DNA from: Octopus vulgaris
Taxonomy: Eukaryota
Direction: 5' to 3'
Assembly (NCBI GenBank): GCA_951406725.2
Contig: OX597818.1
Location: 114,886,001-114,950,000, forward strand
Length of the DNA stretch: 64,000 nucleotides
Shown here: positions 17,880-43,100 of the stretch, piece by piece
How positions within the stretch are numbered: position 1 is the stretch's first letter
Layout of the letters: each line of letters begins with the position of its first letter
Program-made: the position numbers and the translations under genes
Notes under the pieces: model-generated
What the model saw: only the letters and a program-made list of their open reading frames with translations
Databases searched by the model: none
Told to the model about the DNA's origin: nothing

Positions 17880-18290
17880 GCAGGGAGGAAATAAACAAAT
17901 GAGAGCAAAGTGCTCTCTCTTTCTCTCTCTCTCTCTTTACGATTTATAAGATCATGTTCAAAGTGGTTTCGTCACTCGCACGGACCATCTTTGCTACATT
18001 CACCCACGTTTTTTTGAAACTTTCACGAGATAAAACCGCCTCTCCATTCTCACCTTCCTTTTCACGTGGTACTTGAAAAAGTTGATGAGCGATTGGCCAG
18101 AAAGGTAACTGTTTGTTTCTAATCCTTTCGCACGGGTCCACCACACAGATTCTTTTACCATGGCCATCAGTACGATGAACACTGCTTTGCCTTCCCGGTT
18201 GAGTGAAGGTGGCGGAGCAAATATCACGATAGACTCGGCCGACAGGCGGACTCGTCTCACACGTAACAGCAGCCGTTCGTCATAAGTCGA
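17880..18290 (-). mobile_element. L1/Tx1-like non-LTR retrotransposon, ORF2 C-terminal fragment
   Basis: Frameshifted peptide RVRLSAESIV..VWWTRAKG..LINFFKYHVKRKVRMER..FKKTW resembles the ends of L1/Tx1 ORF2. A second homologous copy lies at 38780-39290. Clade assigned from memory. Confidence 0.55.
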
Positions 18291-18321
18291 ACAGCTGGCT
18301 AGATAGATAGGTAGGTAGATT

Positions 18322-25820: not shown

Positions 25821-26385
25821 GGTGGCGAGCTGGCAGAAACATTAGCACGCCGGGCGAAATGCTTAGAGGTATTTCGTCTACCGCTACGTTCTGAGTTCAC
25901 ATTCTGCCGAGGTCGACTTTGCCTTTCATCCTTTCGAGGTCGATAACCTAAGTACCAGTTACGCATTGGAGTCGATGTACTCGACTTAATCCGTTTGTCC
26001 TCTCTGCGTTTAGCCCCTTGTGGGTAGTAAAGAAATAGGTATTTCGTCTGTCGTTACGTTCTGAGTTCACATTCCGCCGAGGTCGACTTTGCCTTTCATC
26101 CTTTCGGGGTCGATTAAATAAGTACCAGTTACGCACTGGGGTCGATATAATCGACTTAATTCGGTTGTCTGTCCTTGTTTGTCCTCTCTGTGTTTAGCCC
26201 CTTGTGGGTAGAAATAGGTATTTCTTCTCCCTTTATGTTCTGAGCTCAGATTCCACCGAGGTCGACTTTGTCTTTCATCCTTTCGGGGCCGATAAATTAA
26301 GTATCAGTTGCGTACTGGGGTAGATCTAATCGACTGGCCCCCTCCCCAAAAATTTCGGACCATATGCCTGGAATAGAAAAGAATA
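25821..26385 (+). mobile_element. SINE family B, head-to-tail trimer
   Basis: One head and three repeats of GGTATTTC..GTTCTGAG..GAGGTCGACTTTG..CTTTCGGGG; the last unit has the alternative tail. Confidence 0.9.
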
Positions 26386-34417: not shown

Positions 34418-34541
34418 CATCTTCTGTTTTTCATTTCCTATAAAAGATCACTCTGAAAGTGACAGTGTTTTAACAGTAAGCTACCAGGTATATATACCTA
34501 TATACACATACATACATATACGTATACACATATATATATAA

Positions 34542-34625
<84 letters not shown>

Positions 34626-34820
34626 TAGTAAGAAGTGAAAAAACTACAGAAGGCTTAAAGGTTAAAAAATATATATATTTGCGTCAATATGTCTGAAGAA
34701 TATTAAAAAAATTTTTCTTACAATGACATAATTTAGAAGAAAGCCCGGTTTCGCGTTTAGCTTTTCAAATTTCTTGCGACATTATGTTTATCTTGAACAG
34801 AGTTATCTTTATGTTTATCT

Positions 34821-35397
34821 TTAAAATAGTTCTAAATAAGGGGAGGTAATAAGTGATTTCTTCCGGTGTAAGGGAGATAATCGCTTAAAATTTTTTAAAT
34901 TTTTTTTTCCTTTCCCTTGGTGTGAATTTCTCTGTATCAGTATGTTGGCATGGTTAAGTCTGGGCTTGTACTTTTCAATGAAGAATGTTTCCTTGTTTAG
35001 TCTAATTTGTGTTGATGATCCGATAGCACATTGGTAAAATGGAAAGATTAAACATTGTGGTCGTAGTTGCGTTGCGCATTTCTCAATGTGCTCACTAAAA
35101 GGTATCGTTCTGTATTCTGGGAATGCAATCTGTTGTCGATGCAGTGTGCATCTACGTCTGAGTGATAGTCCCATGGATCCCACGTAGTCTTGGTGGCAGC
35201 CCGAGCATTTTATGACATAAATTATGTTTTCAGAGGCACAAGTAAAGTTAGATTTGATCTTGAATTTCTGTCCCTCTTTAAAGAGGAATTCTGATCCTTC
35301 TAGCAGGTTTGGACATGTTGCACAGTTCGATCTACCACATTTTTTTACTTTTGCATCCGTAATTTCAGAAAACAATTTTGCCTTTGTGAGAATCTTT
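34821..35397 (-). pseudogene. 5'-truncated PLE GIY-YIG endonuclease domain with Cys-rich linker
   Basis: KCGRSNCATC linker; NFTCASENIIYVIKCSGCHQDYVGS..SLRRRCTLH..FSEH..RLNKETFFIEKYKPRLN fits the GIY-YIG with CCHH motif of Penelope-like elements. The CxxxxCxxC linker suggests the Neptune type. No RT is present. Confidence 0.85.
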
Positions 35398-35824
35398 CGG
35401 GCTGCCACCAAGACTACGTGGGATCCACGGGACTATCACTCAGACGTAGATGCACACTGCATCGACAACAGATTGCATTCCCAGAATACAGAATGATACC
35501 TTTTAGTGAGCACATTGAGAAATGCGCAAAGCAACTACAACCACAATTTTTAATCTTTCCATTTTACCAATGTGCTATCGGATCATCAACACAAATTAGA
35601 CTAAACAAGGAAACATTCTTCATTGAAAAGTACAAGCCCAGACTTAACCATGCCAACATACTGATACAGAGAAATTCACACCAAGGGAAAGGAGAAAAAT
35701 TTTTTTTAATTTTAAGCGATTATCTCCCTTACACCGGAAGAAATCACTCATTACCTCCCCTTATTTAGAACTCTTTTAAACATAAACATAAAGATAACTC
35801 TGTTCAAGATAAACATAACGTCGC

Positions 35825-35863
35825 AAGAAATTTGAAAAGCTAAACACGAAACCGGTCTTTCTT
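35825..35863 (+). ncRNA. minimal hammerhead-like motif with U3-A8 core variant
   Basis: AAGAAA-t-TTGAAAA-GC-TAAAC-AC-GAAA-CCGG-TC-TTTCTT. The mirror copy at about 34737-34775 has an intact GC/GC stem II. Confidence 0.55.
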
Positions 35864-36014
35864 CTAAACTATGTCATTGTAAGAAAAAATTTTTTAATCT
35901 TCTTCAGACATATTGACGCAAATATATATATTTTTTAACCTTTAAGCCTTCTGTAGTTTTTCACTTCTTGCTATTTTCTATATATTCAACCACGTGCTTT
36001 TACAAACCAACTTT

Positions 36015-36069
<55 letters not shown>

Positions 36070-36070
<1 letters not shown>

Positions 36071-36255
36071 GAGAACTTACAATAAAACAAAAGACGAAGA
36101 CGGGTGTGTAAACAACAAACAGATGTATTAGTTTAACGCTCGGCAAGTTAGAAAGTCTTTTACGTTTCGAGCCTACGCTCTTCGTCAGAAAGGAACACAG
36201 AAATGAACAGGGAGAGAAAATAGAAAAAGGTATAACAAAAATCGTACTGCAGACG
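36070..36255 (-). mobile_element. family H1 repeat with intact minimal hammerhead
   Basis: Minus strand 36157-36192 reads CTTT-CTGACGA-a-GAGC-GTAG-GCTC-GAAA-CG-TA-AAAG. The 3' end abuts (TA)n. Confidence 0.75.
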
Positions 36256-38391: not shown

Positions 38392-38690
38392 GATGTAAGT
38401 GTTCCCACTGATGAAAATATATCTGTAAAGGAATTTGACAATTTAAGTAAATATAAGGACCTAGAAATTGAAATACAAACGATGTTGCATCTTAAAGCGA
38501 GAACTGTTCCTGTTATTGTGGGTGCCCTAGGTATGATAAGAAAGGGATGTCAGAAATATCTAAATAATATCCAGGAGAACCATGTCTCAGAGAAATCCAA
38601 CAGGTTGTGCTGACAGGTACTGCTTACATCCTTAGAAACAACAAGAAAAATTACCCCCTAAAGATTACGTAATGTAACTTGAGGTCAACC
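38385..38690 (+). mobile_element. R4/Dong-like non-LTR retrotransposon 3' fragment (restriction-like endonuclease)
   Basis: IDVSVPTDENISVKEFDNLSKYKDLEIEIQTMLHLKARTVPVIVGALG matches the C-terminal half of RLE domains. It begins directly after (AAT)n. Confidence 0.8.
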
Positions 38691-39330: not shown

Positions 39331-39562
39331 CTATTTCTTTATTACCCACAAGGGGCTAAACATAGAGGGGACAAACAAGGATAGACATAGGTATTAAGTC
39401 GATTACATCGACCCCAGTGCGTAACTGATACTTAATTTATCGACCCCGAAAGGATGAAAGGCAAAGTCGACCTCGGCGGAATTTGAACTCAGAACGTAGC
39501 AGAAGACGAAATACGGTTCAGCATTTCGCCCGCCGTGCTAACGCTTCTGCCATCTCGCCGCC
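39331..39562 (-). mobile_element. SINE family B monomer
   Basis: Near-consensus reverse complement of family B. Confidence 0.9.
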
Positions 39563-39863
39563 TCAGGCCAACATTACCCACACCCTCAACTTACCCACTA
39601 TAGAAATCTAGGGCTCTTTTCACATCACCCGCATTTCCCATCCGGTCTAGTGTTGTCATCCTCTAAAATCTTAACTCGTGTTTGAGGCTCGGTCAAGGAA
39701 TGAGCCGCCAAACGACATGCAACACTAAAGACATCCACAAGCGTTCGCTAATTTACTTCATTTTCACTATCACATATGATACATACACTAGACTGGCCTA
39801 AATAACGTGTGTGCGTGTGCGTGTATTTGTGTATGTGTGTATAGTCGATTGTACGCATATGTA

Positions 39864-39992
39864 GGGCGGCGAGCTGGCAGAATCGTTAGCACACCGGGCG
39901 AAATGCATAACAGTATTTCGTCTGCGGCTACGTTCTGAGTTCAAATTCTGCCGAGGTCGACTTTGCCTTGCATCCTTTGGGGCTCGATAAAT
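39864..39992 (+). mobile_element. SINE family B, truncated by gap
   Basis: GGCGGCGAGCTGGCAGAATCGTTAGC head running into Ns. Confidence 0.85.
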
Positions 39993-40092: not shown

Positions 40093-40827
40093 GGCTTTAC
40101 AAAGAATAAGTCCTTGAGGTCGATTTGCCGACTAAAGGCGGTGCTGCATGGCCACAGTCAAATGACTGAAACAATGTAAACAAGAGATAAAATGTGTATC
40201 TGCAATATCCCACAACATTTATTTGTATCAGATATTTATCAGTGTCAAAGATTAGTTTGTGTTTTCTTGATTTCTTTCTTTTGGAGACAATATTAGGAAT
40301 GTTAACATTGTCCAAAGAGTCTCACACATTTGTTTATATATTTATTTTAAAAGCATGGTCATTGAGGTTAATATTGCTTGCTTGGCAACGTCGTATGCAT
40401 ATGCTTTAGAGTTCAATACCATTGCCCAGCAGTTTAAGTGTCTTCTGCTATAGACCTGTACCTACCAACAATTTTTGAAAGCGAATATGCTTGAAGGAAA
40501 CCATGCGGTTTCTATTGCGCTGACAAAATTGCGCTTGCGCGGTGGATTTGAAAAATTATAATGTACAAGAAGAGGCACATGCTGGATTTGCCTTGTACTT
40601 ATATGTTTGATCTAGGCATACCTGTTGATGAAGACTTCGCCTGGCAAATTATTTTATTTGCTAAAAAAGTCTGAAAACCATGGTCCAGGTAATAGTTGGT
40701 AAATGTTTTTATTATTCACTCTGAAATTACTATCCCTAATTAGTGGTTTGGACTTAAGACTGTTCCTTCTAGCTGACCATCTTAATGCATTTAAGTGTAC
40801 ATTTATCATATATATATATATAATTGT

Positions 40828-41443
40828 AATCACAATAAGGGTGAAAAAAATTGAATATTAATTAATAACATCAATTTAAAACACCAAGTGGCCTAGCGTA
40901 TAAAGACTGGGATACAGTAAAAATTATTAATACAAGTAATGAGAGAGTCCACATGTGGTCACTCTAACGCTAGATATAGATCCACGAAGGGAATCCACCA
41001 CTAAAGAATTGTTCTCAAGAATTAGTTCAACGCGCCAAGAATGTAAGCGAGCAGGACAAATGAAAAATAACGAAAAATAGATTAACTCTATACAATTGTT
41101 TCACCGTTAATAGATTGTGTAATTTTACTTACATAATCATTTTCGATCTTCAGTAGAGTATACCAAAAAAATATAATTTGCTGAGTCGAACGCCAACATT
41201 CACACGAAGCCGAACAAAGGCGAATGGCACAGCCGATTATATCTGCAGTTACGTTCAAATATCCTCATTCTCACGCGCTAAACCCGGATGTAAATACTAC
41301 CCCAGTAATTTACTGCCGGTTTGAGAACATATTAATTTATAATTAAAATCACAATAAGGGTGAAAAAATTGAATATTAATTAATAACATCAATTTAAACA
41401 CCAAGTGGCCTAGCGTATAAAAACTGGGATACAGTAAAAATTA

Positions 41444-41449
<6 letters not shown>
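40828..41449 (-). mobile_element. retrozyme-like non-coding element, about 519-bp monomer with about 105-bp terminal redundancy
   Basis: 40828-40932 is directly repeated at 41347-41449. Internal hammerhead; (TA)n on both sides; no listed ORF. Confidence 0.8.
41085..41159 (-). ncRNA. type I hammerhead ribozyme
   Basis: ACTCTA-CTGAAGA-[imperfect long stem II]-GAAA-CAATTG-TA-TAGAGT: perfect 6-bp stem I, palindromic stem III, GUA site. Confidence 0.8.
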
Positions 41450-41505
<56 letters not shown>

Positions 41506-41722
41506 ACAAACACAAAGCATGTGGGTTTAGTTCACAGTGATGAAGCGATTATACGCAAGGCACACTATGTGTCTGTAACGGACCTGCTAGGGATCCAAGA
41601 TTATCCCCGAGACGGAAGTTAGGAGCCATTGCAGATTTCCGATGCACCAGACATAATTGTTAAAGTATGTATTCAGTATCTTATGTGCAGGGCAGTAAAA
41701 CATCCATGTAAGTCATATGACG

Positions 41723-42268: not shown

Positions 42269-42524
42269 CCGTATGTGTCATCCCACATTGACAGTCCAAC
42301 GCCAACAATACTTAAGATTCGGCGAAAAACTGATGGCAAATACGAAACTTAAAGAAAATAGGATAATCTTGGCCTATTTATTTTATGAAACCGTTCATGA
42401 CTCCGGACGGTAGTCCAATGACTGCATCAAGAACATGATAAGTATCTCAGTACAAGACTCGGAATTTTCGTGCGAGGTGGGGGAACAAGTGATATATACT
42501 TTGACTTAATATTTTTACCTCTAA

Positions 42525-43100
42525 GCGGCGAGCTGTTCGTTAGCACGCCGGGCGAAATGCTTAGTGGTATTTCGTCTGCCGTTACGTTCTGAGTTCAAAT
42601 ACGCCGAGGTCGACTTTGCTATCCTTTCGGGGTCGATAAATTAATACCAGTTACGCACAGGGGTTGATGTAATCGATTTAATCCGTTTGTCTGTCTTATT
42701 GTCCCGTCATGTTTAGCCTTGTAGGTAGTAAAGAAATAGGTATTTCGTCTGCTGTTCTGAGTTCAACTTTCGCTGATATCGAGCTCTTCATCCTTTCAGG
42801 TTCGATAAATTAAGTACCAGTTACGCACTGGGGTCGATGTAATCGACTTAATCCCTTTGTCTGTCCTTGTTGTCCCCTCTATGTTTAGCCCCTTGTGAGC
42901 AATAAAGAAATAAGAAACGTTAGCGCGCTGAGCGAAATGCTTAGCATTTTTCGTCTGCTCTTACGTTCTGAGTTCAAATCTCTGATATCGACTTTGCCTT
43001 TCATCCTTTCGAGGGTCGATAAATTAAGTGCCAGTTGCGTACTGGCGTCGATCTAATCAACGTCCCCCCAAAAGTTCATTTTGTGCCTAGAATAGAAAAG
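42525..43100 (+). mobile_element. SINE family B multimer with many small deletions
   Basis: Three core units; indels relative to other copies. Confidence 0.85.

Follow-up and report, generated by a model that had tools for sequence, protein, structure and literature searches.

Hammerhead-bearing non-coding units derived from Penelope-like elements (PLEs) are already known in many animals, and the repeat family described here, from Octopus vulgaris, is probably a further case. Circular RNAs have been proven for the retrozymes of coral, mussel and axolotl (PMC7229834) and proposed for PLEs (PMC4209133). PLEs themselves insert as partial tandems, in which a truncated copy precedes a complete one and an optional tail may follow, and they favour microsatellites as targets (PMC8557442). 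The anole PLE known as PAc, the one PLE reconstituted in vitro, nicks AT-rich DNA as a purified enzyme and initiates reverse transcription internally, at two sites 3' of the hammerhead in uncleaved RNA, so that hammerhead cleavage is dispensable; its authors propose a multi-copy transcript as template, and they report no RNA-seq reads ending at the cut site (PMC11167929). Li et al. define an active retrozyme by two hammerheads and observed cleavage in one of nine dimers tested (10.64898/2026.07.22.740005). The 2026 repeat annotation of Octopus vulgaris assigns 6.83% of the genome to PLEs, and the word 'ribozyme' is absent from its accessible text and supplement (PMC13282606); the giant squid paper, in its accessible part, counts 235 hammerhead matches and takes them no further (PMC6962438). 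High-copy repeats of slightly more than one unit with polymorphic terminal repeats offer a test case for circular against linear tandem RNA as the template from which PLEs and animal retrozymes insert.

A partial tandem in a TA microsatellite and its repeat family

The element lies at 40828-41449 of the window, by which we mean the whole 64-kb stretch of DNA analysed, and comprises 622 non-coding bases, or about 1.2 units of a repeat of ~519 nt with a GC content of 34% (Table 1). The 105-bp terminal direct repeat of the original prediction was recovered by alignment over 105 columns at 97.1% identity (E 5e-44); its two copies differ by one substitution and two single-base indels in A-runs, and the alignment can be extended to 40819/41338, giving 114 columns, at the cost of crossing two further mismatches. 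The repeat period is 517-519 bp. On the ribozyme strand the order is (TA)n, a partial unit of 103 nt, a full unit of 519 nt and again (TA)n, the two units standing head to tail as a partial tandem that forms a pseudo-LTR. The absence of an ORF held as well, the longest stop-free frame being 58 codons even when the unit was read as a circle. The (TA)n expected on both sides is present as a short array of 15 nt on the left and a longer one on the right, and both ends of the element share a TAT/ATA overlap with this target; any target-site duplication (>4 bp) is not discernible inside such flanks. The window carries 92 (TA)n arrays, and 17 of 37,105 array-free placements of 622 nt in it, the element locus included, have (TA)n within 10 nt of both ends. 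No further copies of the element were found within the window.

Table 1. Features of the element and its flanks (window coordinates; the ribozyme strand is the minus strand)
Feature	Position	Strand	Basis
Short (TA)n, left remnant of the target microsatellite	40808-40822	none	
Repeat copy R on the downstream side (105 bp, or 114 bp with the extension to 40819), where the insertion likely has its 3' end	40828-40932	-	
Unique body of the unit, 414 bp, non-coding, containing the hammerhead	40933-41346	-	
Type I hammerhead motif of PLE kind	41085-41159	-	Pattern match, shuffles, comparison with File S2 of PMC8557442
Competing hairpin, predicted to tie up the CUGAAGA core of the element's copy	41147-41169	-	Folding prediction
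Repeat copy R', a partial unit of 103 bp that stands upstream as the pseudo-LTR-like 5' copy when read on the ribozyme strand and meets (TA)n via a 3-nt TAT overlap	41347-41449	-	Repeat alignment
(TA)28, right part of the target microsatellite	41447-41502	none	

Part of the element is present in 20 of the 24 public sequencing runs listed, which come from 11 studies with four organism labels and of which none is on record as RNA. Contigs matching 40600-41375 numbered 1241, 1693, 157 and 14 in four runs, counts that include a separate repeat in the left flank. The RNA status of runs X9 and X15 is a guess and their contigs also cover this left-flank repeat, making them uninformative on transcription, strand and circles. 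In the two DNA runs (two organism labels; 1241 and 1693 contigs) about 70% of the contigs were less than 95% identical, and summed depth over the element ranged from 994 to 89,188 and from 2,360 to 176,953, against 223 and 374 at the left junction bin; these values, which are not copy numbers, are tens to thousands of times the depth of single listed contigs (35-119). Judged from these contigs, the element belongs to a large, diverged family. The contigs are short, the longest piece being 272 nt among the 32 listed of 3156, which is below dimer length; individual variants are likewise taken from 40 of 100 differences, 12 of 68 indels and 24 of 417 loose ends. Pattern scans of metagenome contigs, viral contigs and prokaryote genomes gave no further copies, and a literature search whose scope excluded subscription papers and Repbase/Dfam yielded no paper on the family.

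Depth at thousands runs through both unit junctions. By a 31-letter rule, one piece bridged each of them among the 32 pieces listed: junction 40932/3 was bridged by record 29 of X9, with nine other letters and seven gaps, and junction 41346/7 by record 16 of X15, with two differences, which could be the element locus itself or a near twin. In the last bin, 41354-75, depth was 5,534 and 20,371, and only 16 and 15 contigs fit two places. This recurrence of both junctions makes it unlikely that the direct repeat is a local duplication absent from other copies, the case that was to have refuted the original prediction. Among the loose ends listed, which are biased towards high-depth microsatellite contigs, a microsatellite adjoins other copies at 40836 (one and two contigs) and at ~40932 (four contigs). 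Family copies thus have their left end at more than one position, and R behaves like an optional tail, because some other copies have (TA)n at ~40932. Depth over 41146-41275, the 5' half of the hammerhead and the sequence upstream of it, is ~3 to 80 times below that over most of the unit in both DNA runs; the fall over 41120-41275 does not coincide with the predicted cut (41090/1), and truncation or diverged subfamilies may account for it.

Other repeats are present in the window. The left flank, 40600-40780, is a separate high-copy repeat without significant similarity to the element; its summed depth reaches 131,000, loose ends are numerous and some joints connect opposite strands. A dispersed repeat of ~170-180 bp, partly tandem, occurs at 25867-26335, ~39370-39990 and 42520-43000, and we take it to be SINE-like. 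A frame fragment at 38400-38613 (…SKYKDLEIEI…VPVIVGALG…) adjoins an (AAT)n tract and presumably resembles the end of a non-LTR retrotransposon protein. The segment 14500-15018, used as a folding control, folds far better than its shuffles (a gap of 57 kcal/mol, eight shuffles) and is probably an inverted repeat.

The hammerhead motif and its family variants

The single hammerhead with a perfect stem I that had been predicted was confirmed on the minus strand (41159-41085), where helix I pairs 41159-41154 with 41090-41085 (ACUCUA/UAGAGU) through six Watson-Crick pairs and leads into the core CUGAAGA (41153-41147). Helix II is long, with a U.U at its base and a 10-bp upper stem (41138-41129/41122-41113), GAAA lies at 41102-41099 and the 3' core reads GAAAC-AAUU-GUA. 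Helix III is the palindrome ACAAUUGU at 41099-41092, which has no space for a loop, and the predicted cut falls between 41091 and 41090, after GUA. The motif is the only one at the locus and sits wholly outside the terminal repeat, within the unique body at 40933-41346, again as predicted. Chance matches to a loose hammerhead descriptor were found for the element in 3 of 5000 dinucleotide shuffles, and in 0 of 5000 when six Watson-Crick pairs were required; over the whole window the loose descriptor gave one match against a mean of 0.2 in 40 shuffles. Rfam did not detect the hammerhead, neither at the gathering score nor at E<=10, and over the window it returned nothing at the gathering score; at E<=10 it gave six weak, unrelated matches in 40700-41600.

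When two 79-nt copies of the motif were co-folded without constraint, they formed a dimer hammerhead with an 8-bp intermolecular helix III, at -33.6 against 2 x -11.9 kcal/mol. This architecture is the same as that of the PLE minimal hammerheads, which cleave weakly and as dimers, and in the same work the G10.1-C11.1 pair, which the motif here does not have, is termed highly conserved (PMC4209133). Any cleavage is accordingly predicted by the co-fold to proceed as a dimer through the palindromic helix III. In a context of at least 131 nt the folding prediction gave helix I a pairing probability of 0.01 or less, because the local hairpin takes up the core, and the element's own copy is predicted to be a weak hammerhead of PLE type that is misfolded in its context.

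Variants among the family contigs appear to favour the hammerhead fold. One at 41117 closes the sole mismatch of upper helix II (18 and 20 contigs; 98% of the depth in X1 and 25% in X2), and another at 41163 would, judging the pairing by eye, break a G-C pair of the competing hairpin (5 and 8 contigs, 89% of the depth). A variant at 41087 retains its helix I pair as G.U, and a one-base insertion at 41145 (three contigs) gives a U.U and three pairs. The core was hit by none of the 40 differences listed of 100. Among the 24 loose ends listed of 417, three X9 contigs kept the core with another helix I strand, and one X15 contig carried a GUC triplet together with an altered G12. Stem II variants reportedly described by Lunse et al. 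in 2017 may bear on this hammerhead.

RNA template, rival origins and candidate mobiliser

The element is best read as a non-autonomous derivative of a PLE that inserted as a partial tandem and amounts to a solo animal retrozyme. More fully, we think it probable that the element is a copy of ~1.2 units of an abundant 519-base hammerhead repeat, which PLE enzymes inserted into a TA microsatellite, using as template a linear RNA with two slightly different units head to tail. A tandem source locus elsewhere would be transcribed on the strand that is minus here; a PLE GIY-YIG endonuclease would nick (TA)n, and a PLE reverse transcriptase would initiate internally on the RNA, 3' of the hammerhead, using one of a few AU-rich positions (~40820-40836 or ~40932), as known PLE biology suggests. 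Copying would then span one unit, cross the unit junction and end 103 nt into the next unit at the TAT overlap with the target. The product would be what is observed, two repeats and a single hammerhead with (TA)n at either end. The candidate mobiliser would be a PLE that targets (TA)n, for which the Hydra clade is the lead.

The form of the template turns largely on one site. The sole substitution between the two repeats, G at 40905 and A at 41422, lies in an A-run and is polymorphic in the family, A being carried by 9 X1 contigs (depth 3264 of 8613) and 16 X2 contigs (5102 of 7323), with both letters far above single-copy depth. Paired repeats read from one circle 1.2 times are identical at birth, those copied from tandem RNA need not be, so that two unlike units in one RNA fit better; a later private change is disfavoured because it would seldom coincide with a common family variant. 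The element thus leans towards a two-unit linear template rather than a single circle, on one A-run site at which recurrent change or gene conversion is plausible. Of the retrozyme-like mobile copy of more than unit length that had been proposed, the mobile non-coding unit stands, given that both junctions recur, and the tandem RNA that had been named as the alternative to a circle fits better as its template. Length as a pointer to a circle was not upheld, because PLEs make partial tandems and PAc initiates internally without cleavage, so that more than unit length needs no circle.

The circle of the original prediction nevertheless deserves weighing. On that view the element stems from a true retrozyme: tandem source loci would give rise to circular RNA of 519 nt, joined at the GUA site, and a PLE reverse transcriptase would have made the copy by running 1.2 times round one such circle. 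The recurrence of both junctions means that the family sequence closes into a loop, and the circles proven in coral, mussel and axolotl and proposed for PLEs provide precedent. The unit folded as a circle is also strongly self-paired (-128.7 kcal/mol, z -4.3, none of 60 shuffles as low, 62% paired), with a gap to its shuffles that 2 of 34 control segments (of 67 available) exceeded. However, the opposite strand as a circle reached z -4.6 and linear permutations fold equally well or better, so strong self-pairing is no sign of circularity. Further against this origin stand the difference at the family-polymorphic site, the weak PLE-type hammerhead predicted to misfold, the PAc reads that never end at the cut site, and the presence of one hammerhead per locus where the definition of an active retrozyme has two. 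Release of unit-length RNA takes two cleavages, and a locus with one hammerhead is open to one at most; for this reason the solo copy is a likely dead-end product. Circles could possibly be made by other, tandem loci of the family. On balance we regard the single circle as doubtful.

It is less likely still, in our view, that the element consists of two 5'-truncated tail ends of an autonomous PLE, 103 nt and 519 nt, joined head to tail with no independent non-autonomous family behind them. Such an arrangement is an ordinary outcome for PLEs (PMC8557442), whose hammerheads are located in the 3' part, and contig depth, followed along the ribozyme strand, is lower ahead of the hammerhead, as would be expected from 5' truncation. 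Yet the 187 nt upstream of the hammerhead hold neither an ORF remnant nor a PLE protein match, and depth at thousands passes through the 41346/7 junction, which truncated tails would be expected to keep private. Least credible of all is a SINE-like or satellite repeat in which the hammerhead-like motif arose by chance and the 105-bp repeat by local duplication. The silence of Rfam, the abundance of (TA)n across the window and a box-B-like GTTCGACTC at 41191 would suit it, but the strict hammerhead descriptor was matched in none of 5000 shuffles, the helices are kept in family variants, both junctions recur and ARAGORN called no tRNA genes. Runs of T stop Pol III, and the ribozyme strand has eight runs of at least five T that would do so. 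A tRNA or Pol III origin was rejected on the ARAGORN result, nothing beyond the box-B-like 9-mer being found. The box-B-like GTTCGACTC lies on the minus strand at 41191-41165, just upstream of the hammerhead, and is followed 12 nt later by seven T; it may be chance.

For the non-autonomous PLE derivative, the Hydra clade would be the lead candidate mobiliser, through hammerhead shape and (TA)n target. The frame CUGAnGA-U ... U-GAAA (U after A9, U before G12) is common to 14 of 26 Hydra-clade hammerhead rows in File S2 of PMC8557442 by our own count, in which one family supplies two rows and which, among PLE clades, covered Hydra; (TA)n targets are listed there for 26 of 27 Hydra families. The U.U is not diagnostic, a U.U at helix II being found also in the axolotl retrozyme (PMC7229834), and the clade is defined by its protein. 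We put forward tentatively that the element represents a retrozyme family, undescribed and of very high abundance, that lives as a parasite of Hydra-clade PLEs; it would be the first non-autonomous partner for the clade, with a long-helix-II hammerhead. If so, copies of slightly more than one unit would record the form of the RNA template in the match or mismatch of their paired repeats, and the genome alone could decide between circular and linear tandem RNA for PLE-type elements.

Searches for a direct relative among PLEs gave no match. The two PLE fragments in the window, compared over 34625-36010 and 17930-18300, and the flanks have no DNA similarity to the element (alignment scores within the range of 100 shuffles), tblastn of three PLE proteins against the element gave nothing, and motif look-ups in the supplement of PMC8557442 returned no matching element. 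The element was rejected as an autonomous PLE, having no ORF for RT and GIY-YIG endonuclease and no tblastn match, and no remnant of a PLE ORF was found in it. A link to Naiad, where an 'HHR_half_core' is named in Naiad_Ovul, found no support in the ends compared, the 3' end of Naiad_Obim and both 5' ends being unlike the element by eye.

The PLE 3' fragment at 34535-36068, 5 kb from the element, is an inverted pair of 3' ends with arms 92.7% alike over 675 bp and (TA)n flanks, and its stretch 34824-35432 is a C-terminal GIY-YIG region 53-70% identical to RT + GIY-YIG proteins; Pfam recognised none of the five window fragments queried. The fragment shows PLE use of (TA)n in this DNA and is not a proven partner of the element, because the two have no detectable DNA in common. 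Upstream of GIY-YIG it carries a CxxxxCxxC motif that is Neptune/Nematis-like by PMC8557442. It also holds a variant minimal hammerhead at 35832 on the plus strand, with a UUGAAAA core (U3-A8 variant) and an ACCGGU palindrome, and, by eye, an extension of ~40 nt at one end. At 17944-18300 on the minus strand, a stretch like a decayed PLE 3' end with hammerhead-like remains adjoins a microsatellite (seen by eye; no Pfam match). At 36188, also on the minus strand, a hammerhead-like core, CTGACGA ... GAAACGTA, has a helix I of only 4 bp and may be chance.

Comparison with known systems

Plant LTR retrozymes are, like the element, non-coding, with terminal direct repeats and a hammerhead (PMC7229834, 10.64898/2026.07.22.740005). 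Their hammerhead is of type III and lies inside each LTR, whereby one copy yields a circle, whereas that of the element is of type I and outside the repeat, and a plant-type LTR retrozyme is ruled out on these grounds. The non-autonomous Chlamys elements such as MRC1 share with it the state of non-coding PLE derivatives with pseudo-LTRs and head-to-tail insertions; they differ in residing in green algae, in mostly carrying no canonical hammerheads and in that many target (CA)n or (C)n (PMC8557442).

Animal non-LTR retrozymes come closer (PMC7229834; 10.64898/2026.07.22.740005). Common to both are a non-coding unit of low GC, one type I hammerhead per unit, a head-to-tail junction, many genomic copies, a self-paired predicted fold and the presence of PLEs in the same genome, and the element matches the class of solo 'monomer' copies described for retrozymes. 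At 519 bp the unit exceeds the 150-450 bp of PMC7229834 and falls inside the 51-972 bp of 10.64898/2026.07.22.740005. The element differs in having 1.2 units and a single hammerhead against the two of the active definition, in its PLE-type hammerhead variant with a long helix II and in (TA)n at both ends.

Among PLEs, the Hydra clade, e.g. Hydra-1_Obim and Hydra-1_Ajap (PMC8557442, Files S1 and S2), shares with the element the U.U frame in the rows counted above, a 4-bp helix III and (TA)n targeting. The element encodes no protein by which it could be placed and its helix II is far longer; Hydra-1_Obim, for its part, has a hammerhead without the U.U frame and ends unlike the element by eye. 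Compared with PLEs at large, the element has no RT or GIY-YIG ORF and no G10.1-C11.1 pair, and its optional 3' extension is ~105 nt as against 30-40 nt. With the pseudo-LTR tandems and minimal hammerheads of PLEs (PMC4209133, PMC8557442, PMC11167929) it shares a truncated upstream copy followed by a full unit, alternative 3' ends resembling an optional tail, a palindromic helix III, a long helix II, an AT-rich or (TA)n target and a hammerhead upstream of the 3' end.
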